Shown here piece by piece: positions 19,094 through 34,602 of a stretch of 64,000 bases of DNA (positions within the stretch are counted from its first letter, which is position 1; each line of letters starts with the position of its first letter). Source of the DNA: an uncultured Candidatus Saccharibacteria bacterium. Lineage in GTDB: Bacteria; Patescibacteriota; Minisyncoccia; Phycocordibacterales; SBAW01. Where the stretch lies: NCBI GenBank assembly GCA_964482995.1, contig CAYZZC010000002.1, positions 1,074 to 65,073 of the forward strand. Reading direction: 5' to 3'. Made by a program: the position numbers and the translations under genes. Under the pieces are notes generated by a model. The model did no database searches. It had not been told where the DNA came from and saw nothing but the letters and a program-made list of their open reading frames with translations.

Positions 19094-19098
19094 TTGTT

Positions 19099-20130
19099 AT
19101 GCAAAAAAATTCTCAATCGAAATATATGTTTTTGTATGGAGGGGCTATTGGCGATACGCTTTTAGGTATCCATATTGGCCGCGTCCTTTCGGAAAATAGA
19201 CCGGGTATACAGCTGGTAATGCTCTCTACACGCAAGAGCACATTTGCTCGCGAGTTGACTCAAAACATACCGTTTGTTATGTACCGCGAACTTAACAGAA
19301 ACAACCCAATTTCCTGGATCCAATTATTAGGACTCATGTTTACAAGGTGGAACTCGGTAGTGTTTGATCCGTTTGCTTCGCCAGTATCAACGTGGTGGAA
19401 GATTATTTTATGGTGCACCTCCCGCTATCCCGGCGGTATACACATACGAGCTCAAATACATGAGCAAAAGGTGCCTTCATATTCGCGAGTATTTTTATAT
19501 GATTCGCGGAAAACCAATCTTTTTGATACACCTTCTTCAATACTTGAGCAGTGGGGTATACAAACAGAAAAGGTTCCTAACCCAAGTTTACCAATGCCCG
19601 CTTGCATCCCACCACACTCGAAGCCGTATATTGTTTTTCATTTTTTTGCAGGCTCAATCCGCCGCTCGGTCGCTCCATCTCATGCGCGAGAATTGCTTGT
19701 AGCCGCAAGGAGCCGTTTCCCACACCACACATTTATAGTCACTTGTGCACGAGGCGAGGAAGAGCTGGCTAAGCAGATTGGAGATATCACCAACAATGTA
19801 ATCATAAAGGTTGGGCTCTCTGCGCAAGAAATAGTGTGTCTCTTGTCCCATGCGAGTATGTGTGTAGGTGCCGCCTCTGGTATCACGCATATCGCCGCAC
19901 ATCTGCCAACCCCGTCTGTAGTGTTGTGCAACCTTTCTGATCCTTGCTGGTTACCTCTATATAACCTCCGAGTGGCTTTGCTTTTTGAGCGCGACCGATG
20001 CGGATGCAATGGGGACAAGACAGGGGAGTGTAGCGAAGTCACAGAGGAAGGAGTCTTTTATCGCTGTTTGTATGATATTAAAACTGAAACTGTTATAAAA
20101 GCTATGGAAGAAAAAATTGAACATTCTTAA
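19099..20130 (+). CDS. Glycosyltransferase family 9 (ADP-heptose:LPS heptosyltransferase-like)
   Basis: YGGAIGDTLLGIHIGRVL, FHFFAGSIRRS and VGAASGITHIAAHLPTPSVVL correspond to GT9 signatures. Confidence 0.7.
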   Translation: MQKNSQSKYMFLYGGAIGDTLLGIHIGRVLSENRPGIQLVMLSTRKSTFARELTQNIPFVMYRELNRNNPISWIQLLGLMFTRWNSVVFDPFASPVSTWWKIILWCTSRYPGGIHIRAQIHEQKVPSYSRVFLYDSRKTNLFDTPSSILEQWGIQTEKVPNPSLPMPACIPPHSKPYIVFHFFAGSIRRSVAPSHARELLVAARSRFPHHTFIVTCARGEEELAKQIGDITNNVIIKVGLSAQEIVCLLSHASMCVGAASGITHIAAHLPTPSVVLCNLSDPCWLPLYNLRVALLFERDRCGCNGDKTGECSEVTEEGVFYRCLYDIKTETVIKAMEEKIEHS

Positions 20131-20135
20131 TACAC

Positions 20136-21158
20136 ATGTCTAAACTCGCACTTTATATACCAGAACCACTCAAACGTTTATCGGCACCATGGTTTGCGCC
20201 AGTATCTGAAAAACATTTGTTTACCAAGGACCTTCCTCCCAATTTTTTTGAAACGTTGGTAGAAAAAGTCTCTGACCCTGCATCTGCACGGGCGATAGTC
20301 CTACCTAACAATTTTAAAACACTCGACGCAGAAGCAGCTTCCTATATCCGCACCTATGCTGACCTGGGAGAAAAGCTCAATATCCCCGTGTTTGTTTTTT
20401 CTCTCGGTGATTTTACTCATGATGTACGTTTTGACAGAAGGGTGTACGTATTTCGGTTTTCAACCTATCGTTCAGAGATAGGGTCCCATGATATTGTTAT
20501 GCCAACTTCCACCGAAGACCCGCCCGAGGAACTCCTACACACACGAACGAAGAAAACAAAGCCCACAGTATCCTTTTGCGGCATGGGCGGGTTTCCATCT
20601 ACAAAAGATTGGGTTAAGTACTACATAAAAAACTTTATCTGGGACATAAAAGCCCTTTTTAGGGAGAGCGCGAAGGCAAAAAAAATTGGTGTGTATTGGC
20701 GTCGCAAGATGATGCGGGTTTGCGAGAGATCTAATCTTGTAGAGACACATTTTATTGTGAGACGTACGTTTTCGGGCTTACGCAAAACTATAGAGGTTGA
20801 CCCAAAGCTAGCGCGGAAAGAATATCTCAACAGCATCGCAGAGGCCGATTTTGTATTGGCCCCTAAGGGGGACGGCAACTATTCAAACCGGTTTCTAAAA
20901 ACACTCGCATTCGGACGTATCCCAGTGTTAGTAGACACAGAGGTGGTGTTGCCACTTGAAAATGTGATCGATTACTCGAAAATAGTCGTGCGTGTGCCAA
21001 TGGATCGTGTGCACAACACACCGCGTTATATACGCGAGTTTTATGATGCGCTGAGCGAAGAGGAGTGGGCTTCGCGCCAGCGCCTGGCGCGGAATGTGTT
21101 TGAAGAGTATCTTAGACAGGACTCGTTTTTCCGATACTTTTTCAGCCACGCATTATAA
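20136..21158 (+). CDS. Exostosin-like (GT47-type) glycosyltransferase
   Basis: C-terminal ADFVLAPKGDGNYSNRFLKTLAFGRIPVLVD...IDYSKIVVRV resembles the exostosin-family pattern. Confidence 0.5.
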   Translation: MSKLALYIPEPLKRLSAPWFAPVSEKHLFTKDLPPNFFETLVEKVSDPASARAIVLPNNFKTLDAEAASYIRTYADLGEKLNIPVFVFSLGDFTHDVRFDRRVYVFRFSTYRSEIGSHDIVMPTSTEDPPEELLHTRTKKTKPTVSFCGMGGFPSTKDWVKYYIKNFIWDIKALFRESAKAKKIGVYWRRKMMRVCERSNLVETHFIVRRTFSGLRKTIEVDPKLARKEYLNSIAEADFVLAPKGDGNYSNRFLKTLAFGRIPVLVDTEVVLPLENVIDYSKIVVRVPMDRVHNTPRYIREFYDALSEEEWASRQRLARNVFEEYLRQDSFFRYFFSHAL

Positions 21159-21163
21159 TCCTC

Positions 21164-22588
21164 ATGCTCAAGTCTCTTACAACCACGGACCGCGCGCTCC
21201 TTATTATAGGATTCGCACTGGTGATATTCTTTTCTTCCTACAGATTATTTGCAAGCCCGGAAACCTGGATGGACGAAGGGCTCATTATTCAGACCGCAAA
21301 AGGTATCCTCGAGACAGGCAAAGCCTCATTGCCTGTAGCGCCTGGCGTGTATGAGCCGCTTGGGTATATCAGCACAGGATTCCCGGTTACCTTGCCGCTT
21401 GCGGGTGTGTTTGGAGTATTTGGTGTTTCAATCGAAGCGGCGCGTCTTATAATGCTCGCGTTTCTACTTTCTTTCTACGTTGTACTTTGGTTTTATACGC
21501 GCAGGACAATTGGCGGGGTTGCTGCATGGCTAGGATTTTTTCTTCTTGTTTTCTTTGGCCCTCTTTACGGTAATGGACGCAATGTGCTTGGTGAGATCCC
21601 CGGCCTTCTATTTATACTTTTAGCACTTTTGCCTCTCCTAGAGTCTGGAGTACTAACGCGCAACAAGGCTTTGTTAGTTGGGATAGGGGCTGGGCTTGCA
21701 GTTGCCACCAAACCAATATTCATTCTTTTTTTACCGGCACTCTTGCTAGCCCTTTTATTGCGGCATCAGGAACTTGAACTGAAAAAAGTTTTCTTCTTTG
21801 GTGTAGTCGGCGTCTTGGTGCCTCTCTTTGTGTGGGCATTATTTCAATTTGACCACGTGTCGATCTTGCGTGTGCTTGAAGTGTATGTCAACCCACACGA
21901 TCTTAATATACAGAATGCACTGGCGGCCAATGTTAAAAGGTTTTTTACTGAGCTGCAGCCGCTATATTTCCTCTTTGCACTAGGTATCTGGACTGTAAGT
22001 TACGCACTACGAAAACTGAGGCGGGAGTCTATACCGCTTGCCGAAGAAGCTCTACTCTTCTTCTCTATACTTGTATTTCTTGCTTATCTGCGTACTGCCG
22101 GCTACTATCGCTACTTTTTCCCTGCTCAAGTTTTTGCGTTGCTATATCTACCACAGTCTCTGTGGTATCTCGTAGGAAAGCGCAGCCAACTTTTCTCACG
22201 GGTGGTTATTGTCGGTCTGTGTGGACTCATCTTGTTTCAAGCTTACGAAACAGCGTTTCGCTCGTGGACTGCCACACATTATAATTCTACTCGCACAGAA
22301 GCACTACAGAAGTACTTTGCTTCTGTGCCCGCAGAAGAAGAAATTTTTGTATACCAAGCGCCAGAAGTTGTTCCTTTTTTGGATGGACGTCCAGTATATC
22401 AATATGTGGAGATCACCCCTTCGATCCGTGCTGGTAGCCAACAAGCACGCCTTGTCCAATCGGGAGGGGTACAGTGGGTGTTTACCCCGGAAGATTTTTT
22501 TATAGCTCACCGTGATACTCTGTTTGAGAGGTATACAATCATGGAAAAAATAGACAGCTACGTGGCGGCTGAGCTTAAGGCTCGTTAG
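21164..22588 (+). CDS. GT-C fold membrane glycosyltransferase (ArnT/PMT family, GT39/GT83-like), polytopic
   Basis: More than 10 predicted TM helices. N-terminal PETWMDEGLIIQTAKGILE loop resembles the DE/DD motif loop of ArnT/PMT enzymes. Confidence 0.6.
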   Translation: MLKSLTTTDRALLIIGFALVIFFSSYRLFASPETWMDEGLIIQTAKGILETGKASLPVAPGVYEPLGYISTGFPVTLPLAGVFGVFGVSIEAARLIMLAFLLSFYVVLWFYTRRTIGGVAAWLGFFLLVFFGPLYGNGRNVLGEIPGLLFILLALLPLLESGVLTRNKALLVGIGAGLAVATKPIFILFLPALLLALLLRHQELELKKVFFFGVVGVLVPLFVWALFQFDHVSILRVLEVYVNPHDLNIQNALAANVKRFFTELQPLYFLFALGIWTVSYALRKLRRESIPLAEEALLFFSILVFLAYLRTAGYYRYFFPAQVFALLYLPQSLWYLVGKRSQLFSRVVIVGLCGLILFQAYETAFRSWTATHYNSTRTEALQKYFASVPAEEEIFVYQAPEVVPFLDGRPVYQYVEITPSIRAGSQQARLVQSGGVQWVFTPEDFFIAHRDTLFERYTIMEKIDSYVAAELKAR

Positions 22589-22599
22589 GGTAAGATAAT

Positions 22600-23031
22600 A
22601 TGATCTCATTTTCAAATTATTGGTTTCTTTTGCGTTATGCCTTAGTGGGTATCTCTGGTGGGGTGCTGCAAACCGCGACGCTGTATGTTTGGGTGGAAAT
22701 TTTACATCTCCAGGCGTATTACCTTTCTGGTTCGGCGGTTGGTTTTTGTTTAGCTCTCATGCTTACATTTACGCTTCAAAAATATTGGACTTTTAAAGAT
22801 TATGAGCAGACATTATTTGAGAGACAATTCATTTGGTATACACTTTTTGCCCTCATAAACCTAGGCGCTAATATATTACTCTTACGTACAAGCAAGCTCG
22901 CACTTGAGGCCTTGGGGCTCGATTTCTTCCACGTCTGGTATCTTATGGCGCAAATAGGTATTATCGTAACTCTTGCGCTATTGAGTTTTGTAGCAAACTA
23001 TTTTATAACCTTTCGTAAAAGACATGCCTAA
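22600..23031 (+). CDS. GtrA-family membrane protein (polyprenyl-phosphate-sugar flippase-like)
   Basis: 143 aa with 4 TM helices and LRYALVGISGGVLQTATLYVWVE at the N-terminus. Confidence 0.7.
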   Translation: MISFSNYWFLLRYALVGISGGVLQTATLYVWVEILHLQAYYLSGSAVGFCLALMLTFTLQKYWTFKDYEQTLFERQFIWYTLFALINLGANILLLRTSKLALEALGLDFFHVWYLMAQIGIIVTLALLSFVANYFITFRKRHA

Positions 23032-23749
23032 GACCATTATACTCCTACCAACCTACAATGAGCGAGAAAATGTCTTGCGTATTATTCCTGAAATATTTCA
23101 GACCGACGCGAGGCTCGGGATATTAGTTATAGATGACAATTCTCCTGATGGTACCGCAGAAGTAATCCGCTCGTTGATGACACAATATCCTAACTTGAGA
23201 CTTCTTTCTCGCCCAGAGAAAGAAGGGCTTGGCGAGGCATACAAGGCGGGGATAGCACAAGTGCTCGCCGATTCCTCGATAGAGAGGATCATTACCATGG
23301 ATGCAGATGGTTCACATGCCGTAGAGTATTTACCTGCGCTTATTTCTGCGAGCGAGACATACGACATGGTCATAGGTTCTCGCTATGTGCTGGGTGGCGG
23401 AATAGAAAATTGGGAGAGATGGCGGTACGCGCTTTCTCAGGGTGGTAATTGGTACACGCGTACCATTATCGGACTACCTATTAAAGATATAACCGCAGGC
23501 TTTGTTTGTTACCGGACAGATATATTGCGAAGGGTAGATTTTTCTCGCGTGAAAGCTTCAGGATATGCTTTCCAAATGGAATTAAAGTTCTGTATCGCCT
23601 ATACACTTGGGGGCAGTGTTGCGGAAATCCCCATTGTATTCAGAGCACGTCGAGAGGGGGAGTCAAAAATCTCGCGGCATATAATTACTGAAGGGCTCAA
23701 AACACCATGGCGATTGTTTTATCGGAAATGGATCAACTATGAGCACTAA
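23024..23749 (+). CDS. GT2 polyprenyl-phosphate glycosyltransferase (DPM1/ArnC/GtrB-like)
   Basis: ILLPTYNERENV, VIDDNSPDGT and TMDADGSH motifs. ATGA overlap with gtrA. Confidence 0.8.
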   Translation: MPKTIILLPTYNERENVLRIIPEIFQTDARLGILVIDDNSPDGTAEVIRSLMTQYPNLRLLSRPEKEGLGEAYKAGIAQVLADSSIERIITMDADGSHAVEYLPALISASETYDMVIGSRYVLGGGIENWERWRYALSQGGNWYTRTIIGLPIKDITAGFVCYRTDILRRVDFSRVKASGYAFQMELKFCIAYTLGGSVAEIPIVFRARREGESKISRHIITEGLKTPWRLFYRKWINYEH

Positions 23750-24596
23750 CCCTTACTGTTTGCTGTGCGGCTCACCCTCACATTTTTTTGGAAATAAAAG
23801 CAGTTATACGCTTTATACTTGTGACAACTGTACTTTCACCTTTGTGCATCCCATACCGAATTCTAGAGATGTATATACAGAGGGTTATTTTACCGGGGCG
23901 TCAGCTCACTCCGGATACGCAAACTATGACGCTGACAAAGAGGCTATGGTGCCTACGTTTGAAAAATATCTCAAACGTATAGCGCTGCTCGTACCTGGCA
24001 AAAGAATGCTCGACGTAGGAGCTGCTACAGGTTTTTTCTTACAGATTGCGAAGCGTTTTGGTTTTAATGTCTACGGAGTCGAGATATCCTCCTATGCTTC
24101 CGGGCAAGCCACAAAGAAGGGGATACTTATGATAACTGGGACACTTAATGATGTGCCAAAGTCACCCTTGTTTGACGTGATAACAATTCTTGATGTTATA
24201 GAACATGTCGGCGACCCATATGCTGAGTGTCTGCGTGCTCACGCATTGCTTGAGAGGGGCGGGTTATTAGTGATCAACACCCCCGACATCGGGAGTCTCT
24301 ACGCACGGCTCATGGGGGAAAAATGGCATCTCATAATCCCACCAGAGCATCTTTTTTATTTTAATCGCAAAAACATGCGCATAATGCTTGAAAAAATAGG
24401 TTTTGAGGTAGTGTCTATCACAACGATAGGAAAACGCTTCACACCTCAACTTGTTTTTAAGACGCTGTATGTATGGCAAAAGTTATCTCTATGGAAATAC
24501 CTTTCTGATTTTTGTGAACGCACGCCGCTACGACATGTAGCGATCCCTATAAATTTATACGACAATATGTTTGTTATTGCGCGCAAGAAAAAATAA
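23739..24596 (+). CDS. Class I SAM-dependent methyltransferase with N-terminal Cys4 zinc ribbon
   Basis: CLLCGS...CDNC zinc ribbon, then MLDVGAATGFF motif I. Confidence 0.7.
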   Translation: MSTNPYCLLCGSPSHFFGNKSSYTLYTCDNCTFTFVHPIPNSRDVYTEGYFTGASAHSGYANYDADKEAMVPTFEKYLKRIALLVPGKRMLDVGAATGFFLQIAKRFGFNVYGVEISSYASGQATKKGILMITGTLNDVPKSPLFDVITILDVIEHVGDPYAECLRAHALLERGGLLVINTPDIGSLYARLMGEKWHLIIPPEHLFYFNRKNMRIMLEKIGFEVVSITTIGKRFTPQLVFKTLYVWQKLSLWKYLSDFCERTPLRHVAIPINLYDNMFVIARKKK

Positions 24597-24604
24597 ACAT
24601 CTAT

Positions 24605-25438
24605 ATGTCACTTACCAAAATAGCAATGTTCGTATACACAGTCATATTAAAGCCGTGGCCTTTGCGATGGATTACTAATAAAATGCTCCTTCTAGTAATC
24701 CCTAGTCGTGTCTCTCTGCCAGAGGGCGTAGTAAACCTACATCCAAAGGACCCAGTCATCTCAGGCGCTTTGGCTCTTGGTGTATACGAGACTTACCAGC
24801 TTGATTTGTTTCGCTCACTAATACGCAAGGGTATGACCGTGCTAGACATAGGTGCAAACGTAGGGCTCTATACAGTTATTGCTGCGCGGCTTGTGGGGGA
24901 GGAGGGAAGAATTATCTCTTTTGAGCCAGAAGCACAAAACTTTGGGATACTTAAAAAAAATATATCGGACAATAATTTCAAAAATGTACAACCAATTCAA
25001 GTGGCGGTGGCAGACACAGAGGGTGAACTCACTCTTTTTCTATCAAAAGGAAACAAGGGCAAACATTCTTTATTTAGACCTTCTGACACAGGGGGAGAAC
25101 AGGTAGTAAAAACTATTGTATTAGACAAGTGGTTGGAGAAACATACCATTGGCAAAGTGGATATCATAAAGATCGACATACAGGGAGCAGAACCTCTTGC
25201 TTTCTCCGGTATGCAAAAGACGCTCAGCACAAAACCGGTACTACTTATGGAGTACGATCCAAAATCGATACGCGAGAGTGGACATAACCCAATCGAAACC
25301 CTCGAGATGCTTCTTGGGTATGGATATGTGTTGTATAGCGTAGACGAAGGCAAAAAAAGCAAAAAGAAAATTAATGACATTCGGCTGTTCACTGATGCTC
25401 TGCGTAAAGAACAATATGCGAACCTGCTTTGCATCTAA
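24605..25438 (+). CDS. FkbM-family methyltransferase
   Basis: VLDIGANVGLYTVIAARLVGEEGRIISFEPEAQNFGILKKNI and EGELTLF motifs. Confidence 0.7.
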   Translation: MSLTKIAMFVYTVILKPWPLRWITNKMLLLVIPSRVSLPEGVVNLHPKDPVISGALALGVYETYQLDLFRSLIRKGMTVLDIGANVGLYTVIAARLVGEEGRIISFEPEAQNFGILKKNISDNNFKNVQPIQVAVADTEGELTLFLSKGNKGKHSLFRPSDTGGEQVVKTIVLDKWLEKHTIGKVDIIKIDIQGAEPLAFSGMQKTLSTKPVLLMEYDPKSIRESGHNPIETLEMLLGYGYVLYSVDEGKKSKKKINDIRLFTDALRKEQYANLLCI

Positions 25439-25441
25439 CTT

Positions 25442-26590
25442 ATGAAAAAACAAACACTCTACTATATTGCTAATGCGCGCATGCCAACCGAAAAGGCGCA
25501 CGGCATCCAGATCGCCAAAATGTGCGAGGCTTTTCTTGAAGCGGGCATCAATTTGGTGCTGGTGTTGCCACGCCGTGGCAAGCCAGAAAAATCTATAAAA
25601 GATTTTTACGGGCTGCGTAAAGATGTCCCGGTGGTGATGCTCTGGGGCGTAGACCGACACAATAAAGGGCCGTTCTGGTATTACCTGAGCTCGTATTCGT
25701 TCATCATTTCCTACTTTTTATATGTTCTTTTGTATGTGGATAAGAAACACTCGGTGATTTATACTGTTGACCTAGACCACTTTTCGTACAAAGCACTTTC
25801 ATATCTTAGCGTCCCGTTTTTCTCTGAGATGCATGGTGGGAAGCCGAACAATGCCCTCCACCGAAAGTTTTTCTCCAAAATTGCAGGGGTTATTCCTACC
25901 AACCACATTACCAAACAAGAGCTTCTGGAAAAATTTCATATCTCTGAGAAGAAATTTTTGGTTGAGCCAAATGGTGTCGATCTTTCAAACTTTGCGCAGC
26001 TTGAGGTGCAAAAAGCTCGAACACAGCTTGGCCTATCCATAGATAAAAAATTAGTTTTGTATGTTGGGCGTTTTTTTGAGTGGAAAGGCCTCGACATCCT
26101 CACTGAAGCAGCGCCGCTTTTGCCGGATACGATACAGCTTGGTATGGTGGGAGGCACCGTTGAAGAGTTTAAAAGGATTACTGGTAAGAGCCCTCACCCA
26201 TGCATGCACTTTTATGGGAGCCAGCCGTATGCACAGATACCGCTCTGGATTTCTGCGGCTGATGCACTGTTGGTGTTAGGCACCAAACAAGACGTGCAGT
26301 CGTACCACTACACCTCGCCGATGAAGGTGTTTGAGTATATGGCTATGAAGCGGCCAATTATCGCGAGCAAGACGCCAGCGCTTCAGGATATCTTGTCTGA
26401 TAAATCATGTTATTTTTATGAGCCGGACAATGCCAAAGACTTAGTGCGTGCAATGGAGCAAGCAGTCGAAGGCTCTTCAGAATATAAGCTTACCGAAGCG
26501 TATAACACCGTATTGAAATATACTTGGGGTATGCGCGCAGAGCGCATCCGCGCGTTTATGAATCGTTTGCTCAACGACAGAGCAGTATGA
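25442..26590 (+). CDS. Glycosyltransferase family 4
   Basis: GT-B layout, LVLYVGRFFEWKGLDIL, and YTSPMKVFEYMAMKRPIIASKTPALQDIL (EX7E-like). Confidence 0.75.
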   Translation: MKKQTLYYIANARMPTEKAHGIQIAKMCEAFLEAGINLVLVLPRRGKPEKSIKDFYGLRKDVPVVMLWGVDRHNKGPFWYYLSSYSFIISYFLYVLLYVDKKHSVIYTVDLDHFSYKALSYLSVPFFSEMHGGKPNNALHRKFFSKIAGVIPTNHITKQELLEKFHISEKKFLVEPNGVDLSNFAQLEVQKARTQLGLSIDKKLVLYVGRFFEWKGLDILTEAAPLLPDTIQLGMVGGTVEEFKRITGKSPHPCMHFYGSQPYAQIPLWISAADALLVLGTKQDVQSYHYTSPMKVFEYMAMKRPIIASKTPALQDILSDKSCYFYEPDNAKDLVRAMEQAVEGSSEYKLTEAYNTVLKYTWGMRAERIRAFMNRLLNDRAV

Positions 26591-27465
26591 CACAACCACC
26601 ACTAAAAGAGTTTCGTGCCAATATAACCTCGCGTCAGGGCGAGGATGGCATTATTGCTGAAATTTTTCGGCGTATCGGCACCAAAAACAAATGGTGCGTG
26701 GAGTTTGGTGCGCTCAACGGTGTGCACGACAGCAACGTATGGACGCTGATAAAAAACGAAGGCTGGTCTGGTGTGCTTATTGAGGCTGACCGGACCTACT
26801 TTGAAACGTTAGTCGAAAACTATAAGGATACTCCGCGCGCCATATGTTTAAATCTCTTTCTTTCTTTTGAGGGGGAGAACAGCCTTGACGCAGTGTTTGC
26901 CCGCACGCCGCTCCCCAAAGATGTTGACCTTGTTTCGATAGACATAGACGGCAACGATTATCATGTATGGGAGTCGCTCAAAGAATATCGGCCTCGAGTG
27001 GTGGTTATAGAGTTTAACCCTACTATCCCAAACGACATCGTGTTTGTACAACCGCGCGACATGGCTGTGCAACAAGGCTCCTCACTCCTCGCTCTCGTAG
27101 AGCTTGCAAAGAAAAAGGGCTACGAGCTTGTAGAGGTTACTGGTGCAAATGCTTTTTTTGTAGAAGCGTCGCTGATGTCAGAGCTCCAGCTAGACAACCT
27201 CTCGATAAGCGCGCTGCATCCGGAAGTTGAGTACTATACACGCGTATATCAGCTCTACGATGGCACGCTAAAGCTCGATGGCTATAAAGAGCTTTTATGG
27301 CACCGCAAACCAATTAGTGAAGAGGACATACAAGTTTTACCAGCGCATGAGCGGGTGTACCCTGCGGGCCTCAGCTCTGCGCCTGCAATACGGAACCTCA
27401 AATACTGGGTGCGAAAATCTCCTCTGTATCCGCTTATAAGACGCTTGCGGGGGCAAGATAAATAA
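26587..27465 (+). CDS. Putative FkbM-like SAM methyltransferase / hypothetical
   Basis: QGEDGIIAEIF...WCVEFGALNGVHDSN resembles the Methyltransf_21 N-terminus. ATGA overlap with the upstream GT4. Confidence 0.45.
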   Translation: MTQPPLKEFRANITSRQGEDGIIAEIFRRIGTKNKWCVEFGALNGVHDSNVWTLIKNEGWSGVLIEADRTYFETLVENYKDTPRAICLNLFLSFEGENSLDAVFARTPLPKDVDLVSIDIDGNDYHVWESLKEYRPRVVVIEFNPTIPNDIVFVQPRDMAVQQGSSLLALVELAKKKGYELVEVTGANAFFVEASLMSELQLDNLSISALHPEVEYYTRVYQLYDGTLKLDGYKELLWHRKPISEEDIQVLPAHERVYPAGLSSAPAIRNLKYWVRKSPLYPLIRRLRGQDK

Positions 27466-27466
27466 T

Positions 27467-29350
27467 ATGTCAGAGGGGTCAAACATACGCACTATAGAAA
27501 CTGCGCACGGACGCTTTAGTGTTGATATGTTGCGCGACAAAAAGATAGGCACGAACTTACAAGAGGGGAGCTACCACCAAGAAGATACACTTGAGCTTCT
27601 AAAAAATTTTATTACGCCGGACAGTGTAGTTGTTGATATTGGCGCACATATAGGCACTTTGGCAGTCCCTCTCGCAAAACTTGCCGGGAAGGTTATTGCG
27701 TTTGAGCCAGCGCCAAGCACCTTTGCACTTCTTAAAAAAAATATCGAACAGAATAATCTCACCATTGATGCACGCAACAAAGGGCTGGGGAGCCGCTCTG
27801 GCTACGCATCACTCCAAACAGAACATTTTGCAAATGCCGGAGCAAATACATTAGAGCTTGGTCAAGGTTCAATAGAGGTGAGCACACTTGATGACGAGGT
27901 CGAGTATGCCGATGTTATAAAGATAGACGTAGAGGGTATGGAACTCGCAGTATTTGAAGGTGGGGTGGAGCTTATAGAAAAAGTGCGCCCCATTATTTTT
28001 AGCGAGGTTAATTTATCCGCGCTGCGTGCGCATGGCTCTTTGCCGCAAAAGATCGAGCAGTTTTTGTACAAACGCGGATATGACCTCTACGTGCCTCTGG
28101 GGGACAAAAAGCTTGGCAAAATAGGGAGCCTTAGCCTCGTGTCTCTTTTAAAGGCCCCTCGTGCATATTTATTGAGGAGCCAAAGCGCCCCCTTTGATAT
28201 CTTGGCTATCCCACGGGGAAAATCCATACCAATACCGCACATTTCAGCATCAGCAACCTACTGGTATTTAGGAGCAGATTATTTTAAAAAACAAACAAAG
28301 AGACTAAGACAATTCTTTTTTGATAAAAAAAATAACAGCACATTGCTCGTTCGTAAGGCGGTGACGTTTCGCGCCTCCTCAATAGGAGACTCTCTTATGG
28401 GGAAATATCTACTTGAGAATATCCACGCAGCTTTTCCTGAGGCACGCTGTTCGATATTAGTTGCAGGAAAGGCGGGTATGATCCGCGACCTCCTCGCGGC
28501 GTATCCGTGGATCGAGATTATAGAGGCAAATAAAAGCCAACCCCTCAGTATTATTACTGCTTTTAGAAAGCTTTTTTTGAGCGATGCAACTGTTACCCAA
28601 TACTCGGGGCGTGGGCAGTTTGCAACCGCTACAAAGCTTTTTGCACGAGCAATTACGCGCCGTGGCCGCTTTGCGGGGTTTACTGATGCGTGGCCACTCA
28701 ACACATACTTATATGACCGTCTTATCCCGTTTAGTATGCGCAGAGCGATGCGGCTGCATGAGTGTGACGCACTCGAGGCTTTAGGTATTGAAGTGAGCAT
28801 CAAAGACATTACTCTCCTCGCAAAAGAATGGAATCCTGTGCTCGAGCGCCTTCATCTTGAAGAAAAGAAATATATTATTTTGAATCTTTTTTCAAGCACG
28901 CCTGCGCGCGGGCTCTCGCTTGCGCGGCAAATAGATATTGCGCGTGGTTTGTATGACATATTTGGTAAAGATAAAAAAATTATTCTCACCGGCGGGAGCT
29001 TTGACGCGCCGATAGTGGAGAAAATAAAAGAAGCCGTGCCCGAAATCCTTGATGCGCCAGGCCTTTCAATGCAAGAACTCATAACGCTTGTCGCAAAAAG
29101 TGCCGGGAGCGTGAGCTTAGACACGGGTGTCGGGCATATCGGGGCGCAGGTGGGTGTGCCGCTTGTGATAATGCGCACGTGCTGGGGCTACAACTGGTGG
29201 AACAAAGATAACTACGGCCGCGAGGGGATAGAGGTACTTTCTCGTGAGGACTTATGTGTTAATGGCCACGTAAGCAAAAACTTCCCCGACTGTCTCGACC
29301 AAATCGCAACGAGCAATATCGTAGCCGCCGCAAAGGAACTCTTTATTTGA
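27467..29350 (+). CDS. Bifunctional protein: N-terminal FkbM-family methyltransferase fused to C-terminal GT9 (heptosyltransferase-like) glycosyltransferase
   Basis: Residues 1-200 have VVDIGAHIGTLAVPLAKLAGKVIAFEPAPSTFALLKKNI (FkbM). Residues ~280-627 have GVGHIGAQVGVPLVIM and GT9-like organisation. Confidence 0.6.
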   Translation: MSEGSNIRTIETAHGRFSVDMLRDKKIGTNLQEGSYHQEDTLELLKNFITPDSVVVDIGAHIGTLAVPLAKLAGKVIAFEPAPSTFALLKKNIEQNNLTIDARNKGLGSRSGYASLQTEHFANAGANTLELGQGSIEVSTLDDEVEYADVIKIDVEGMELAVFEGGVELIEKVRPIIFSEVNLSALRAHGSLPQKIEQFLYKRGYDLYVPLGDKKLGKIGSLSLVSLLKAPRAYLLRSQSAPFDILAIPRGKSIPIPHISASATYWYLGADYFKKQTKRLRQFFFDKKNNSTLLVRKAVTFRASSIGDSLMGKYLLENIHAAFPEARCSILVAGKAGMIRDLLAAYPWIEIIEANKSQPLSIITAFRKLFLSDATVTQYSGRGQFATATKLFARAITRRGRFAGFTDAWPLNTYLYDRLIPFSMRRAMRLHECDALEALGIEVSIKDITLLAKEWNPVLERLHLEEKKYIILNLFSSTPARGLSLARQIDIARGLYDIFGKDKKIILTGGSFDAPIVEKIKEAVPEILDAPGLSMQELITLVAKSAGSVSLDTGVGHIGAQVGVPLVIMRTCWGYNWWNKDNYGREGIEVLSREDLCVNGHVSKNFPDCLDQIATSNIVAAAKELFI

Positions 29351-29414
29351 CATAACCTATAAAGTGTAATACTCTGTTCATGGAACTAGAAACCGGGAAC
29401 TAGAGGAGTATCCC

Positions 29415-30239
29415 ATGTCCTATGAGCTCTTTGTTATCGACCACAAGCCTGAACTCGATGAGCAGGAGAAAGGCCGTGTAGCGGCTCTGAAAAACAAGCT
29501 CGCAACCGCCAAGAGTCTTGGTCTGAAAGCGCAAGCTGGTTCGATCAAGACTGACATTACTACCATTGAGCGCGGTCCTCTTATAATGACCCCGCCCATG
29601 ACCGACAGCGAGCTGACCATCTGGCGTGCCTGGCTGCCAACGGCCTACACCGACATCAAAGATGATCAAAATTACGGGCTGGCAGACTACAACTTCGACC
29701 GCATCCCGAGCCCTGTGCTCAAGATGTGGCAGAAGCACAGAGAATCCGGTCTGTTTGAGCGGTTCGAAATCTGGACACCAGAAATTGTTCAACCAGATCC
29801 GATCCTCGTTGGCGTCGTTGGCCGCGTTCGGTATTTGCTTGCCCGCTGGGGCGAGTCCGATGCCAACCTGGTCTCCTTCGACGACATCAAGCGCGAGCTG
29901 GTGCGCCGTTGGCACAACAATGAATCCCTCGGCAATGAATCGACCAGTGAAAGGTGTGCCCGTTACGATCGAGTCGGTGACGCGTTCTCCTCGGCGGTTA
30001 TCTACATGTTATGCGTGGGCATTCCTGTCTGTATAACTCTTCTTGTGTTGTTGGAAGCTCTTCTGTACCCGGCAGGCGCCACGATCAGCGGTCTCTTGGC
30101 TGCTGTTTCGATTGGAGTCGCCAGATTCTTCTATGCTCGCAAGAGTATGACGAAGAAAGTACTGCAATCGAGCACCATCATGCAGGCGATTGCAAAGGAC
30201 GATTCGGTTTCGCGCGAACTGTATCCAGCTTCGGCCTGA
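29415..30239 (+). CDS. Hypothetical protein with C-terminal double TM anchor, stand-alone unit
   Basis: AGAGGAG RBS 6 nt upstream of the ATG, terminator downstream, GC3-rich codons unlike its neighbours. Hydrophobic C-terminus VIYMLCVGIPVCITLLVLL...ISGLLAAVSIGVA. Confidence 0.45.
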   Translation: MSYELFVIDHKPELDEQEKGRVAALKNKLATAKSLGLKAQAGSIKTDITTIERGPLIMTPPMTDSELTIWRAWLPTAYTDIKDDQNYGLADYNFDRIPSPVLKMWQKHRESGLFERFEIWTPEIVQPDPILVGVVGRVRYLLARWGESDANLVSFDDIKRELVRRWHNNESLGNESTSERCARYDRVGDAFSSAVIYMLCVGIPVCITLLVLLEALLYPAGATISGLLAAVSIGVARFFYARKSMTKKVLQSSTIMQAIAKDDSVSRELYPASA

Positions 30240-30264: not shown

Positions 30265-30309
30265 AGCCCTCGCTCTAACCTTATGGTTGGTGCGGGGGCT
30301 TTTATTTTG
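30265..30309 (+). terminator. Rho-independent terminator (long imperfect hairpin plus T-run)
   Basis: AGCCCTCGCTCTAACC-ttat-GGTTGGTGCGGGGGCT followed by TTTATTTTG. Confidence 0.6.
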
Positions 30310-30946
30310 CAACGGTAAAGAGGAAAAAGAGGTGAGCGGGGTCGTTGGCAAAAGACTTTTTTTCAACCAAATGCAGGCCTGCTTCGCGCGCGTGATTTAA
30401 AAACCACGAGACAGGAGTTCCTTTTTTACCTAACTCCCAATAATGTTCGCCATTAAAGACATGCGTTTTCCAAAAGAAGGGGATTTTGAAAAGTAGTGAA
30501 AAACGTTTTATAAGCGGGACTTTAATAATTGCAGAGAACACATACCCCGGCTGCGGGACTGAGATAACTACCGAGTGTTTTGCTACACGCGTAATTTCTC
30601 TAAGTGCCTGAGGTAGGTCGCTCGTCTCTATGTGCTCGAGAATTTCTGCTGCTATAACGACATCAAACGATTTATCAGGAAGCGGGATATTGGTGACGGA
30701 GCCGAGTATGTCTGGCTTTAAATCCTCTGCGATATCGAGCGTTGTAACTTCAAAACCTCTACGGGTGAGCTCCTGGGCCACCACGCCGCTCCCAACACCC
30801 ACCTCAAGCACTGAGCGGCCTTTTGTCTTTGCAATAAGATCTAGTTGATGAAAATACGAATTCCATCGCTCGAGCGATGTATATGCAAGCCCCAAGTAGT
30901 GAGCCTTGTCTACCTGCGTTTTATAATTTGTTTTTTGATCGTGCAT
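30302..30946 (-). CDS. Class I SAM-dependent methyltransferase
   Basis: VLEVGVGSGVVAQEL (motif I) and DVVIAAEILEHI (motif II/III). Confidence 0.7.
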   Translation of the reverse strand: MHDQKTNYKTQVDKAHYLGLAYTSLERWNSYFHQLDLIAKTKGRSVLEVGVGSGVVAQELTRRGFEVTTLDIAEDLKPDILGSVTNIPLPDKSFDVVIAAEILEHIETSDLPQALREITRVAKHSVVISVPQPGYVFSAIIKVPLIKRFSLLFKIPFFWKTHVFNGEHYWELGKKGTPVSWFLNHAREAGLHLVEKKSFANDPAHLFFLFTVAK

Positions 30947-30985: not shown

Positions 30986-32026
30986 ATGAAAGCCGCTATT
31001 TTGGAGCAGATCGATGCGCCACTTACTGTGGGCGAAGTAGGGCTAACTGAGCTTTTGCGCGGCCAGGTTTTGGTCAAGATTTTAGTGAGCGGTATTTGTG
31101 GCTCGCAACTCCAAGAAATCGCAGGCAACAAAGGTAACGCAAAGTTTCTGCCACACCTGATGGGGCACGAGGGCTGCGGTATTGTCGAGGAGGTGGGTGA
31201 GGGCGTCACCAAGGTAAAAAAAGGAGACAAGGTGGTGATGCACTGGCGTAAAGGTGAAGGAGTCGAAGCAGATTTCCCCACATACACATTCAACGGCAAG
31301 ACAATGAAGAGCGGCAAAGTAACCACTTTTAGTGAACACTCGATTGTTTCAGAAAATCGGGTGACACCGGTGCCCAACGACACACCAAACGACCTATGTG
31401 CACTTTTGGGCTGCTCGCTCTCTACAGCGCTCGGCACTATAAACACCGAGGCAAAAGTACAGCGTGGAGAAAGCGTCATGATTGTGGGGGCGGGAGGTCT
31501 TGGTGCTAATTTAATCAAAGCGGCAAAAATGGCAGGCGCCTCGCCTATTATCTCTGTCGATATTCACGAGCATAAGCGAGAGTCTGCACTTCTACTTGGT
31601 GCAACGCATTTTATAAACGCCGCGACAGAAGGTATTGCAGACGCACTTCTAACACAAACAGGCCTCAAGAGTGTCAGTGTTATTGTCGACACCTCAGGCG
31701 CTAAGAAAAGTTTAGAGAGCACTATCCCGCTCCTTTCTGGTGGCGGGCGCTATATTCTTGTCGGCCAACCAAAACCTGGCGAGACTATTGAGCTTACAAA
31801 CGCGTATCATTTTTTTGACGGAGAAGGGAAGACACTTAAAGCAACACAAGGAGGTGGTTTTATGCCAAGCACGGATATCCCGCGCTACCTCGAGCTGTTT
31901 GCATCTGGCGCGCTCAACATAGACGGCATAATCACGCACCGAATTTCACTCGACCAAATAAATGAAGCAATTGATTTAGTACGAAAGGGGATGGCTGGTC
32001 GGGTTATTATAGACATATCATCATGA
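30986..32026 (+). CDS. Zinc-dependent alcohol dehydrogenase (MDR family)
   Basis: GICGSQLQ, HLMGHEGCGIVEEVGEGV and the GAGGLG Rossmann segment. Confidence 0.8.
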   Translation: MKAAILEQIDAPLTVGEVGLTELLRGQVLVKILVSGICGSQLQEIAGNKGNAKFLPHLMGHEGCGIVEEVGEGVTKVKKGDKVVMHWRKGEGVEADFPTYTFNGKTMKSGKVTTFSEHSIVSENRVTPVPNDTPNDLCALLGCSLSTALGTINTEAKVQRGESVMIVGAGGLGANLIKAAKMAGASPIISVDIHEHKRESALLLGATHFINAATEGIADALLTQTGLKSVSVIVDTSGAKKSLESTIPLLSGGGRYILVGQPKPGETIELTNAYHFFDGEGKTLKATQGGGFMPSTDIPRYLELFASGALNIDGIITHRISLDQINEAIDLVRKGMAGRVIIDISS

Positions 32027-32976
32027 ACAAACTTTTAGAAGCATATAAGCGGATGCTTTTCATACGAGTTGCCGAGCAAGAGCTTGTACAACTGTATCTC
32101 GACAAAAAGTTATTTAGTATGGTGCACTTTTATGTCGGCCAAGAGGCTGTGGCGGTTGGTGTATGCGACGCACTAAAACCCGAGGACAAAGTGATGGGCA
32201 ATCATCGCTCGCACGGGCACTACCTCGCCAAGGGCGGCAACTTCCGCAGGATGGCGTGCGAGCTCCTCGGCCGTGCAAACGGCCTGGCGCACGGCAAGGG
32301 CGGCTCGATGCACATGATCGACAAGTCGGTTAACTTTGTCGGCTCAACCCCGCTTTTGGGGAGCGTTGCGCCGCTTGCAGCCGGTGTTGCGTTTGAACAA
32401 AAGTTTAATAATCGAGACACTATCACTACTGCCTTTTATGGCGACGGCGCCTCAGAAGAGGGCGTGGTGTACGAGACATACAACTTGGCGGCGCTGTACC
32501 AAGTGCCGCTGCTCCTGATTGTTGAAAATAATCTCTTTGCTATCAACTCAAAACTAAAAGACCGCCGCGCGCCCGGCCATACTCTTGAAAAAATTGTATC
32601 AGGGTTCGGTGTCGAGTATAGAAAAGCAGACGGGAACGATTACAAAGACGTGCATGCAAAAGCAAAAGAACTAGCCGACCTTGTCCGCCGAGAAAAGCGG
32701 CCAGCCGTGCTTGAGTGTGTTACCTACCGCCACATGGCGCACTCAACACCCCTTATGGATGAAAAACATCGTGAGGCAGATACGCTTGAAGAGCGCACCA
32801 AGCAAGACCCCCTTACTAAGCTTAAGGCTGAGCTTCTTGCGAGCGGCATTACAGAAGGAGAGCTTGCTACTTTAGAAAAAACATTTAAAGAGGAAGTGCA
32901 GGCTGATATCAATTTCGCGCTCGAGTCGCCGTTCCCCACAAAGGAAGAAATGTATACCGACATGTATGCAGAATAA
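32023..32976 (+). CDS. ThDP-dependent 2-oxoacid dehydrogenase E1 component, alpha subunit (PdhA/AcoA-like)
   Basis: FYVGQEAVAVGV, HRSHGHYLAKG, ThDP motif region YGDGASEEGVVYETYNLAAL. ATGA overlap with the ADH. Confidence 0.85.
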   Translation: MNKLLEAYKRMLFIRVAEQELVQLYLDKKLFSMVHFYVGQEAVAVGVCDALKPEDKVMGNHRSHGHYLAKGGNFRRMACELLGRANGLAHGKGGSMHMIDKSVNFVGSTPLLGSVAPLAAGVAFEQKFNNRDTITTAFYGDGASEEGVVYETYNLAALYQVPLLLIVENNLFAINSKLKDRRAPGHTLEKIVSGFGVEYRKADGNDYKDVHAKAKELADLVRREKRPAVLECVTYRHMAHSTPLMDEKHREADTLEERTKQDPLTKLKAELLASGITEGELATLEKTFKEEVQADINFALESPFPTKEEMYTDMYAE

Positions 32977-34015
32977 TTACAATATGGAACCAAGGATTAT
33001 CAAATACGCCGAGGCGATTAAAGAGGCCACCAAGCAGATACTCGAAAGCGACAAAACCGCTTTTCTTATGGGCCTTGGTGTCCCGCAGGGTGCCGCAGGC
33101 ACTGTCGTGGGGCTTAAAGAGCTCTTCCCCACCCAAGTGCTTGATACACCGACCTCTGAGGCGGCGCTCACCGGGCTAGCGGTCGGGGCGGCTATCAGCG
33201 GCCTGCGCCCCATGGTCTACCATGAGCGCGTTGAGTTTAGCTTGCTCGCCAGCGACGCTATCTTTACCCAGGCTGCAAAATGGAACTACATGTTTGGCGG
33301 CAACAACCCAGTGCCGGTAGTGCTGCGTATTGCCGTTGGCCGACAGTGGGGCAATGGCCCACAGCACTCCCAGGCGCTCTACGGCCTCTTTGGAGCGGTG
33401 CGGGGGCTTAAAGTGGTTATACCCTCGACCCCCCACATGATGAAGGGCCTGCTAATATCCGCTATCCGCGATAACAACCCTGTCGTGATTCTAGAGCCCC
33501 GTTGGCTCTACCAGGTAAAGGGGCATGTGCCAACTGAGATGTTTACTGAGCCGCTCGACCGCGCACGCGTGGTTAAAGAAGGGACTGATCTCACGGTGGT
33601 TGCCTACGGCGACGGTTTTGTAGACACACTTGCTGCGCTCAAGCTCTTGCCGGAGGATATCAGTGTTGAGATGATCGACCTCGTGAGCATCAACCCGATT
33701 GACCACCAAACGATCGCGAAGTCGGTTGAGAAAACAGGCCGGCTTCTGTGTGTCGACAGCACCAACAGCGCATTTAGCATTGGCTCAGAGATAATCGCTA
33801 AAGTAGCGCAAAATCCGGTGGGCTTAACTCAAGCGCCCGTTGGAGTCGCGGCGCCCGATGTGCCGGTGCCCACCTCGCCCGCCTTAAGCGAGTTTTGGTA
33901 CCCAACTAAAATCGACATCGCAAACGCGATTTTGAAAATGTTTGGGAAACCCGAGCTCGATATAAAACTCCCGTTCGAAGAGCTCCACCTTGCCCCGACC
34001 ACCACGCTCGAGTAA
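32966..34015 (+). CDS. 2-oxoacid dehydrogenase E1 component, beta subunit (transketolase-like)
   Basis: Transketolase pyrimidine-binding and C-terminal domain pattern (LMGLGV..., VVIPSTPHMMKGLL, DLTVVAYG). Confidence 0.85.
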   Translation: MQNNYNMEPRIIKYAEAIKEATKQILESDKTAFLMGLGVPQGAAGTVVGLKELFPTQVLDTPTSEAALTGLAVGAAISGLRPMVYHERVEFSLLASDAIFTQAAKWNYMFGGNNPVPVVLRIAVGRQWGNGPQHSQALYGLFGAVRGLKVVIPSTPHMMKGLLISAIRDNNPVVILEPRWLYQVKGHVPTEMFTEPLDRARVVKEGTDLTVVAYGDGFVDTLAALKLLPEDISVEMIDLVSINPIDHQTIAKSVEKTGRLLCVDSTNSAFSIGSEIIAKVAQNPVGLTQAPVGVAAPDVPVPTSPALSEFWYPTKIDIANAILKMFGKPELDIKLPFEELHLAPTTTLE

Positions 34016-34197: not shown

Positions 34198-34602
34198 CTA
34201 AAGACGAATTCCATAAAAAAAATCTCCGCTTCGGTGGTTCCATATATACGTGCCTTTTGCAAAATAATCGAAAGTAGTAACTGCAAAACGTTTTTTATGT
34301 GTCGGGTCAGTAAAGTTATTACGTGAGGTAAAGTGCGGGACACGGATATGCACCTTGCCGCCTGAGGCGAGGATGCGATGAATATCCTTTAATACAGGGA
34401 TATACTCAACGTGTTCTAAAATATCCTGGCACAAGATTTCATCGAAACTATTATCTGCAAAGGGGAGCGGCAGTTTTTCGATATCGTGTACAACATCAAC
34501 TCCTGGGAGCTGCACTATATTAAGGTTTACCCAGCCTTCTTTAATGTCTGTGCCACAACCAAGGTTGAGTTTGCGTGGAGAGACGGCATTCTTTTTATCC
34601 AT
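34198..34602 (-). CDS. Class I SAM-dependent methyltransferase (Methyltransf_11-like), apparently truncated; remainder continues in another frame to 34023
   Basis: LNLGCGTDIKEGWVNLN, DEILCQDILEHV and GGKVHIRVPH. The ORF stops just after an A8/T8 homopolymer (34215-34222). A -strand ORF in a different frame (34023-34343) then runs on for ~60 codons past the tract. Confidence 0.5.
   Translation of the reverse strand: MDKKNAVSPRKLNLGCGTDIKEGWVNLNIVQLPGVDVVHDIEKLPLPFADNSFDEILCQDILEHVEYIPVLKDIHRILASGGKVHIRVPHFTSRNNFTDPTHKKRFAVTTFDYFAKGTYIWNHRSGDFFYGIRL

Follow-up and report, generated by a model that had tools for sequence, protein, structure and literature searches.

An FkbM methyltransferase fused to a GT9-type glycosyltransferase in a methyltransferase-rich glycan locus of a Patescibacteria bacterium

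We analyzed a 64-kb stretch of DNA (hereafter the window) from contig CAYZZC010000002.1 of an uncultured Candidatus Saccharibacteria bacterium, in which an unbroken run of same-strand genes with very short spacers extends from 18044 to 30239. Within this run lies the gene studied here, an uninterrupted 627-codon frame encoding an FkbM methyltransferase domain, a long α-helix and a GT9-like glycosyltransferase (GT) domain of the GT-B fold (Table 1). The initial annotation of the window had described this open reading frame (ORF) as such a fusion, and domain scores, fold and a family profile all bore this out. No transmembrane segment was predicted in the 627-residue protein, which is therefore probably soluble.

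The N-terminal part of the fusion matched PF05050 (Methyltransf_21/FkbM) over residues 57–206 with 64.6 bits (cut-off 22.7) and TIGR01444 with 90.6 bits (cut-off 37.7). The FkbM family is recognized by a glycine-rich motif I that binds S-adenosylmethionine and by an acidic (I/L)K(I/M)D(V/I)EGxE motif. Congruently, the domain carries the motifs VDIGAHIG (residues 56–63), AFEP (78–81) and IKIDVEGME (151–159), the first and the last of which are kept across the aligned orthologues, and by these scores and both motifs it is assigned to the FkbM family. Weak to marginal matches to the RfbT family were also obtained with this domain and with FkbM_A, the product of a gene upstream. The annotation had placed the domain at residues 1–200; the AlphaFold2 (AF2) model, computed from a 37-sequence alignment with a mean predicted local distance difference test (pLDDT) of 91.5, extends it to approximately residue 250, plus a C-terminal helix. 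Stand-alone FkbM proteins cover residues 6–280 of the fusion, and the helix therefore belongs to the FkbM half: in the ancestral stand-alone protein it formed the C-terminal helix, and it now lies between the two domains.

Next, we considered the C-terminal domain. A search of the PDB with the single sequence of the fusion returned generic methyltransferase matches only and nothing for this domain. A profile built from 21 members of the C-domain family retrieved WaaF (E = 7e-11) and WaaC (E = 1.6e-8) by sequence alone, at an identity to the fusion domain of 13–17%, and homologues of the fusion carry precomputed PF01075 (Glyco_transf_9) matches. When the modelled domain was compared with the PDB using Foldseek, the best match was 3tov (a Veillonella GT9, E = 2.6e-15), followed by 1psw (E. 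coli WaaF) and by 2h1h, 2gt1 and 6dfe (WaaC). GT9 structures held ranks 1–3 and 5–10, with E-values from 1e-15 to 1e-12, and rank 4 went to a plant NDH-PSI supercomplex chain (9grx, E = 5.2e-13). The template modelling (TM) score on the target was 0.70–0.74 for WaaC and WaaF versus ~0.46 for TibC.

The residues of WaaC that handle the substrates have been assigned roles (bioRxiv 10.1101/2021.06.16.448588), and each has a counterpart in the fusion. The catalytic base Asp13 aligns with D308 and the pyrophosphate ligand Lys192 with R481, both invariant in the family, while the ribose ligand Glu222 aligns with D513, an Asp conserved in the sequences inspected. The donor loop Asp261-Thr262-Gly263, in which Thr262 and Gly263 contact the α-phosphate and Asp261 contacts heptose hydroxyls together with His266, corresponds to D552-T553-G554 (D552 and T553 conserved in at least 90% of the sequences, G554 invariant), and His266 corresponds to the invariant H557. 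The fusion thus contains the GT9 signature, that is, the catalytic Asp of the N-terminal GD motif, the DTGxxH donor loop and a basic pyrophosphate residue. Loss of the GT9 catalytic residues, which the annotation had named as one of two outcomes that would undo its proposal, was not observed, and the donor-binding residues are kept as well. Taken together, sequence profile, predicted fold and catalytic residues identify the C-terminal domain as a GT9-type GT-B glycosyltransferase.

WaaC (HepI) and WaaF (HepII), the CAZy GT9 heptosyltransferases of the lipopolysaccharide (LPS) core, are accordingly the best fold and profile matches of this domain, and their catalytic Asp, DTGxxH loop and phosphate and ribose ligands have conservative counterparts in it. 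The fusion differs from them in having Arg for Lys192 and Asp for Glu222, in an additional invariant Cys3His cluster and in its methyltransferase partner. Moreover, WaaC and WaaF act on Kdo2-lipid A (Kdo, 3-deoxy-D-manno-octulosonic acid), whereas the host of the fusion, a member of the candidate phyla radiation (CPR, Patescibacteria), has no known acceptor of this kind.

The Cys3His cluster comprises C572, C597, H601 and C609 (29180–29293), is invariant in all 21 aligned GT9-like members from CPR and sits in the C-lobe, beyond the DTG donor loop. From its sequence pattern, the cluster may bind Zn or Fe in a structural role, recalling yet differing from the four-Cys iron finger of TibC.

An identical 627-residue protein was found on eight contigs from at least four samples, among them two ENA assemblies and a pair of Logan assemblies from separate runs. 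Fused orthologues were present at 83, 78, 70, 65, 43 and 42% identity, one of them in the genome "Parcubacteria group bacterium Gr01-1014_56" (L017), and the junction is conserved at the protein level throughout their alignment. An exhaustive representative search yielded 71 clusters at E < 1e-30, most of them stand-alone GT9-like proteins of ~330–345 aa or stand-alone FkbM proteins of ~275–295 aa. Adjacent but split FkbM and GT9 genes were found in loci L005 and L010 and in ten genome loci. The two genes of L005 lie in different frames, with the FkbM stop codon at 8018–8020 and the GT9 ATG at 8025, 4 nt apart, which means that the fusion adds essentially no linker. Most relatives keep the two halves as separate neighbouring genes, and the fusion is lineage-specific. 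In a neighbour-joining tree of the GT9 domains, the fusion of the window falls among split forms and the fusion of L048/L056 in a distant clade; the fusion therefore arose at least twice.

Other fusions observed in these families agree with this pattern. Two distant and apparently independent FkbM::GT9-like proteins (P0034 and P0030) carry a CxxC motif, and FkbM domains fused to GT2, GT4 or GT7-type domains were common among the database matches. We also found a GtrA::GT9-like protein (P0087, 480 aa), a Methyltransf_23::FkbM protein (P0096, 591 aa), whose two families are encoded by neighbouring genes in the window, and sulfotransferase::FkbM (596 aa) and FkbM::FkbM fusions (P0192, P0077/P0130).

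Related loci were viewed with 10-kb flanks. All 47 loci from species-representative genomes belong to Patescibacteria, including Paceibacteria, Kaiserbacteria, Nomurabacteria, Adlerbacteria, Vogelbacteria and "Parcubacteria"; the label of one record is Bacteriovoracaceae, and that of many is simply the generic Saccharibacteria. In the 44 assessable genomes, the position directly 5′ of the GT9-like gene was classified, and in 34 of them it was taken by a methyltransferase gene or domain, which came from several unrelated families: a fused FkbM (3 genomes), a separate orthologous FkbM (10), another FkbM (5), the 292-aa type that we call the B protein (6), a Methyltransf_11/23 type (8) or a TylF type (2). 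An orthologue of the GT4 gene at 25442 was present in 39 of the 47 loci, nearly always upstream of the methyltransferase/GT9 pair, and the PMT_2 GT-C, GtrA and GT2 genes recur beside this GT4-methyltransferase-GT9 unit, giving the recurrent arrangement [GT-C PMT_2]-(GtrA)-GT2-GT4-[methyltransferase]-GT9-like. On the 3′ side, two unassigned proteins and a trio of alcohol dehydrogenase (ADH), E1α and E1β genes were found in 8–11 of the 47 genomes, and a PfkB kinase, a cytidylyltransferase-like protein and a cupin in addition in 4–6. The recurrent pairing of a methyltransferase with the GT9-like protein, together with the independent fusions, constitutes "Rosetta stone" evidence for a coupling of both steps.

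Table 1. Genes of the glycan locus and domains of the fusion (positions in the window).
Feature	Position	Strand	Remarks
GT4	18044–19093	+	
Second, distantly related GT9-like glycosyltransferase	19099–20130	+	Weak match; 20–27% identical to the fused GT domain
GT47/exostosin-like	20136–21158	+	Eukaryote-type Exostosin domain, 54 bits
PMT_2-type GT-C membrane glycosyltransferase	21164–22588	+	~9 hydrophobic segments
GtrA	22600–23031	+	
GT2, polyprenyl-phosphate sugar synthase type	23024–23749	+	
Class I methyltransferase, Methyltransf_23	23739–24596	+	
FkbM methyltransferase A (FkbM_A)	24605–25438	+	277 aa; 70.4 bits
GT4-type Glycos_transf_1	25442–26590	+	63 bits
B protein, divergent FkbM-like	26587–27465	+	292 aa; class I methyltransferase fold
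Fusion gene	27467–29350	+	627 aa; FkbM methyltransferase domain, helix, GT9-like GT-B domain
FkbM domain of the fusion	27467–28216	+	Residues ~1–250
Long α-helix connector	28247–28327	+	Residues 261–287 (~27 residues); AF2 secondary structure
GT9-like GT-B domain of the fusion	28349–29347	+	Residues 295–627
Protein with two transmembrane segments	29415–30239	+	No family assigned
Methyltransf_11	30302–30946	-	
Methyltransf_11	34198–34602	-	
Conserved protein, 285 aa	34626–35483	-	Divergent; with the next, just 3′ of the GT9-like gene in 11/47 related genomes
Conserved protein, 234 aa	35438–36142	-	Divergent; see the preceding row
PfkB kinase, HldA-like	36181–36954	+	257 aa; TIGR02198 (RfaE domain I) is its best model
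HldC/RfaE-domain-II-like adenylyltransferase	36908–37420	+	Cytidylyltransferase-like
Cupin_2 protein	37417–37794	-	Travels with the PfkB gene
ABC protein, fused TMD-NBD exporter	60265–62049		594 aa; no extra C-terminal module; sole ABC protein found in the window
Abbreviations: ABC, ATP-binding cassette; TMD, transmembrane domain; NBD, nucleotide-binding domain.

Then, we looked for genes that could supply the donor sugar. Approximately 7 kb downstream of the fusion lie genes for an HldA-like kinase, whose best PDB match is the heptose-7-phosphate kinase HldA (4e84), and for an HldC-like protein that reached 169.6 bits with TIGR02199 (heptose-1-phosphate adenylyltransferase; cut-off 181.5), and the same two genes lie near GT9-like genes in a JGI contig. 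No clear HldD was found in the locus scans. Pfam scans of the unassigned ORFs beside the PfkB and HldC genes in five loci detected no SIS or HAD domain; they gave methyltransferases, a GT4, a NUDIX hydrolase, a DAO oxidoreductase, a lectin-like protein and a 2-hydroxyacid dehydrogenase. Because of the HldA- and HldC-like genes and the conserved counterparts of Asp261 and His266, a donor of the ADP-heptose type is our best guess, and we regard heptose, delivered as an ADP-sugar, as the most likely single candidate while granting it only about an even chance of being right. The methylated heptose or rhamnose of the initial annotation thus keeps a plausible heptose, and no rhamnose-specific link to the fusion was found.

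The HldA-like kinase region (36181–37794; also the JGI contig/L043) includes the cupin gene, and in two relatives a NUDIX hydrolase gene. The HldA-like/cupin set may represent a non-canonical route to a nucleotide-heptose, in which the cupin could, speculatively, act as a sugar-phosphate isomerase or epimerase.

That the protein is a bifunctional methyltransferase/glycosyltransferase acting in glycan assembly appears highly probable. With moderate confidence, we propose that it is a soluble tailoring enzyme that both adds a sugar to and O-methylates the same surface-glycan intermediate in a Paceibacteria-type CPR bacterium. The GT9-type domain would transfer a sugar, most likely heptose, to a membrane-anchored acceptor, with the HldA-like kinase and the HldC-like adenylyltransferase supplying the sugar in its ADP form; the acceptor would probably be a polyprenyl-phosphate-linked oligosaccharide built with the help of the neighbouring GT2 and GT4. 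The FkbM domain, with S-adenosylmethionine, would O-methylate a hydroxyl of the same intermediate, either on the sugar of the preceding step or on the newly added one, so that the fusion would unite the translationally coupled pair of most relatives and place consecutive steps on one polypeptide. The GtrA::GT9-like fusion P0087 and the conserved proximity of GT2, GtrA and GT-C genes suggest that the acceptor is linked to a lipid on the inner face of the membrane, and the arguments for such an acceptor seem to us evenly balanced with those for another acceptor. Domain identities, residues, fusion and gene pairing are observations; donor, acceptor, order of the reactions and destination of the glycan are what we infer.

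The locus as a whole encodes at least nine methyltransferases and ~12 glycosyltransferases, the latter from at least five families, and these numbers argue for a heteroglycan methylated at multiple sites. The annotation had envisaged an iterative route of adding a sugar and then O-methylating it. Coupled glycosylation and methylation agrees with the upstream methyltransferases described above, but a multiply methylated heteroglycan fits better than an iterative homopolymer, and the parallel drawn with the mycobacterial methylated polysaccharides (methylmannose polysaccharide and methylglucose lipopolysaccharide) is disfavoured by the same counts. Nor does the parallel with O-antigens fit, as every relative found is a member of Patescibacteria/CPR, a group commonly regarded as being without LPS. 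A CPR-specific branch, whose acceptor must be something other than LPS, thus exists in a family that carries the annotation "LPS heptosyltransferase" everywhere. A literature search for heptosyltransferases of CPR bacteria gave no relevant result. Almost nothing is known experimentally about the surface glycans of these bacteria, which live attached to hosts, so that surface chemistry probably matters for attachment; here, a glycan with heavy methylation takes up tens of kilobases of a ~1-Mb genome. Should ADP-heptose, a known agonist of innate immunity, be the donor, CPR bacteria would likewise count among the sources of this metabolite.

Several observations weigh against the proposed function. 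The PF01075 match of the fusion itself is marginal and partial (64 residues, 504–567; 23.3 bits, cut-off 22). The WaaC/WaaF equivalog models TIGR02193 and TIGR02195 gave 21.9 and 24.3 bits, far under their cut-offs of 185.3 and 134.6; the fusion is therefore not an orthologue of the LPS heptosyltransferases, and by these scores its GT domain represents a distant GT9 branch and not an LPS core enzyme. The predicted TM (pTM) score of the model was 0.59, which means that the domains are well defined and their mutual orientation is uncertain, and substrate channelling between them is conjecture. On the side of the donor, the PfkB kinase scored 114.8 bits with TIGR02198, under the cut-off of 345, and is short at 257 aa; only 4–6 of the 47 genomes have PfkB and HldC genes no more than 10 kb away from the GT9-like gene; and tblastn searches of the window and of 57 related loci with their 10-kb flanks, using approximate E. 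coli GmhA (SIS) and GmhB (HAD) sequences as queries, gave no match better than E = 0.12, for which reason the donor stays an inference. Finally, among the ORFs of the window that were scanned, drawn from the longest non-overlapping ones of at least 70 aa, none was recognized as Wzx, Wzy or an initiating phosphoglycosyltransferase.

Some of these points also speak for a different donor, that is, for a GT9 fold that uses another nucleotide sugar while the HldA- and HldC-like genes serve another step or the second GT9-like enzyme (19099–20130). The very low heptosyltransferase equivalog scores, the failure to find GmhA and GmhB locally, the minority of genomes with PfkB and HldC genes nearby and the changes of Lys192 to Arg and Glu222 to Asp are all consistent with this explanation. 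We nevertheless consider it rather unlikely, as the family keeps the DTG phosphate loop and the counterparts of the heptose-hydroxyl ligands Asp261 and His266, all of the nearest solved folds are those of heptosyltransferases or GT9 proteins, and the window, the JGI contig and several genomes each have HldC- and HldA-like genes at the same locus.

The initial annotation had also considered it possible that the methylated sugars form caps that end chain extension. In such a model, a methyl group placed by the FkbM domain on the non-reducing terminal sugar would stop elongation and license export, as with WbdD of E. coli O8/O9a, RfbT of V. cholerae or WsaE of Geobacillus stearothermophilus. There are precedents for methyltransferase terminators joined to GT modules, and FkbM_A passes the threshold of the RfbT family (PF05575, V_cholerae_RfbT; 29.2 versus 27.9 bits). 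One such case is WsaE, from the S-layer glycan system of G. stearothermophilus NRS 2004/3a, in which an N-terminal O-methyltransferase domain fused to two rhamnosyltransferase domains makes a 2-O-methyl cap (PMC2943079). Like the fusion, WsaE is a soluble multidomain protein of a Gram-positive-type surface glycan, with the methyltransferase N-terminal to the glycosyltransferase and tightly packed genes; unlike it, WsaE has two rhamnosyltransferase domains, a Wzm/Wzt exporter and a terminating cap, whereas the fusion has a single GT9-type GT-B domain in a window without Wzm/Wzt and shows no evidence of a polymer or a cap. V. cholerae RfbT (WbeT) belongs to the same PF05050 methyltransferase family as the fused domain, but it is a stand-alone protein that acts on the terminal perosamine of the O-antigen. 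We judge such a cap improbable. Neither a Wzm/Wzt pair with a carbohydrate-binding module, nor an ABC-2 type membrane protein, nor an evident polymerase was found in the window, although other regions of the genome may hold them; the connector helix of ~27 residues is not a long coiled-coil ruler; and the many methyltransferase families and at least five GT families indicate multi-site methylation of a heteroglycan.

Two other systems join a methyltransferase to glycosyltransferases. In Klebsiella pneumoniae O7, ORF6 contains methyltransferase-kinase, coiled-coil and GT2 modules (PMC11231755); the ORF6/WbdD type resembles the fusion in that a helical segment joins the methyltransferase module to GT modules, but it has its own methyltransferase-kinase pair, a long coiled-coil ruler and ABC transporters with carbohydrate-binding modules, none of which is present at the fusion locus. 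A064R of chlorovirus PBCV-1 has two rhamnosyltransferase domains and a C-terminal methyltransferase and was shown in vitro to add sugars and then methylate the terminal one (PMC9614988). It shares with the fusion sugar addition and methylation on one polypeptide and differs from it in the reverse order of domains, in GT families and in being viral and acting on a capsid N-glycan. A methyltransferase joined to a glycosyltransferase is thus not conceptually new, as WsaE, A064R and ORF6 precede it. The distinctive features here are the GT9 family, the CPR host with its non-LPS acceptor, the lack of a terminator or exporter context and the pairing with interchangeable methyltransferases.

We also considered that the enzyme could be a protein-directed heptosyltransferase of the TibC/AAH type (bacterial autotransporter heptosyltransferase, BAHT), glycosylating a surface protein, for instance an S-layer or pilus subunit, directly in the cytoplasm. 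TibC and AAH are GT-B heptosyltransferases outside the LPS core whose C-lobe holds a Cys-ligated metal site (PMC4358343). The fold matches of the fusion include TibC, the invariant C572/C597/H601/C609 set lies in the C-lobe, where TibC has its four-Cys iron finger, and the absence of LPS thought to characterize the host lineage would be compatible with such an activity. We hold it to be quite improbable, however, since the structural match of TibC is clearly poorer than that of WaaC/WaaF, the Cys pattern differs (Cys3His versus Cys4, with no CxxC), and the β-barrel and β-hairpin thumb of TibC/AAH are absent, the place of the N-terminal barrel being taken by FkbM, or by nothing in the stand-alone forms. 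In addition, the GT2/GtrA/GT-C synteny and the GtrA fusion point to lipid-linked chemistry.

That the fusion is a sequencing frameshift, the other outcome that would have undone the initial proposal, an assembly artefact or a decaying pseudo-fusion with one dead domain can be dismissed as extremely unlikely even though a single indel separates the fused and split states in the close relative L005, where a stop lies between halves in different frames, because independent assemblies and runs contain the identical ORF, fused orthologues down to 43% identity keep both domains and the junction, and the catalytic motifs of both domains are intact.

A more far-reaching version of the proposed bifunctional enzyme, which we put forward as a doubtful conjecture, is that Paceibacteria-type CPR, as monoderm-like bacteria without LPS, possess their own GT9 clade, obligatorily paired with and now and then fused to interchangeable methyltransferases, that makes an O-methyl-heptose glycan on polyprenyl monophosphate, with a Dpm1-like GT2 in place of a classical phosphoglycosyltransferase for the start, a PMT_2 GT-C for delivery on the outside and an ADP-heptose route free of GmhA and GmhB. 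If so, this would be a lipid-monophosphate glycosylation route of archaeal or eukaryotic style, in which a cupin isomerase might stand in for the SIS-type isomerase.

With regard to the genes immediately upstream, the initial annotation had listed two further FkbM methyltransferases flanking a GT4, all linked by overlaps of 2–4 nt. The GT4 is confirmed by its Glycos_transf_1 match and FkbM_A stands as a second FkbM protein, but only one junction is an overlap (4 nt, ATGA, 26587/26590); the other two are gaps of 3 nt (25438/25442) and 1 nt (27465/27467). The run of methyltransferases is real and has more members than had been listed, namely the Methyltransf_23 gene and the two Methyltransf_11 genes. 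The status of the B protein is less clear, as its PF05050 match is marginal and partial (25.8 bits, cut-off 22.7; residues 99–151, profile positions 101–155) and its TIGR01444 score of 19.6 bits lies below the cut-off of 37.7. Its model (pLDDT 88) matches class I S-adenosylmethionine-dependent methyltransferases only, so that, judged by the predicted fold, the name "FkbM-like" is acceptable, while the FkbM sequence criteria are not cleanly satisfied.

The B protein family is large, with 4399 homologues at E ≤ 0.001, the best 120 of which are 56–82% identical, and it is far more conserved than its GT9-like (~40%) or FkbM (~45%) neighbours. It shows invariant EDG, GAxNG, EAD and DxDG motifs, and some records name its homologues "iron ion binding protein". 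The exostosin-like protein of the window recurs in 15 of the 47 related CPR loci.

Downstream of the fusion, the region 30986–34015 encodes a Zn-ADH and E1α and E1β subunits of the pyruvate/acetoin dehydrogenase type, with no E2 or E3 nearby. This trio is conserved at 60–75% identity beside the GT9-like gene and the PfkB kinase in L026, L038, L040, L043, L050, L051, L052 and L057, and it may take part in making a branched or extended sugar or be an unrelated acetoin/butanediol module. The 285-aa and 234-aa proteins gave no Pfam, NCBIfam or PDB sequence match; the latter opens with a stretch, ...NKLGDNIIVNGL..., that gives the impression, on sequence only, of resembling the N-terminal GD motif of GT9.

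Farther downstream, the genes between 37881 and 43985 encode a phosphopantetheinyl transferase, an FkbH-like protein (567 aa, weak FkbH_N match), a MaoC dehydratase, a short-chain dehydrogenase/reductase, an MBOAT membrane acyltransferase and a 398-aa protein with a single transmembrane segment. The same cluster is found in L005, there with a PP-binding carrier protein, and by analogy with Dlt systems it looks like a module for the carrier-protein-dependent O-acylation of an extracytoplasmic glycan. A sugar C-methyltransferase (Methyltransf_13/14) is encoded at 49025–50332. At 53081–55501 lies a gene for an 806-aa protein in which an N-terminal FAD oxidoreductase (amine-oxidase/GLF-like) is fused to NeuB (sialic/nonulosonic acid synthase) and a SAF domain, and a cytidylyltransferase of the CMP-sugar type (56534–57289) comes after it, an unusual architecture in a nonulosonic-acid module. 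The locus edge also encodes a radical SAM protein of the B12-binding type (62136–63953, ~600 aa), whose L005 copy (9140–10939) lies directly 3′ of the GT9-like gene; it may carry out a C-methylation or another radical tailoring step. Just upstream of the glycan locus, a gene for a PGA_cap-type protein (5541–6539) is followed by one for a TrwB/TraG-like type IV coupling ATPase (6542–8275).

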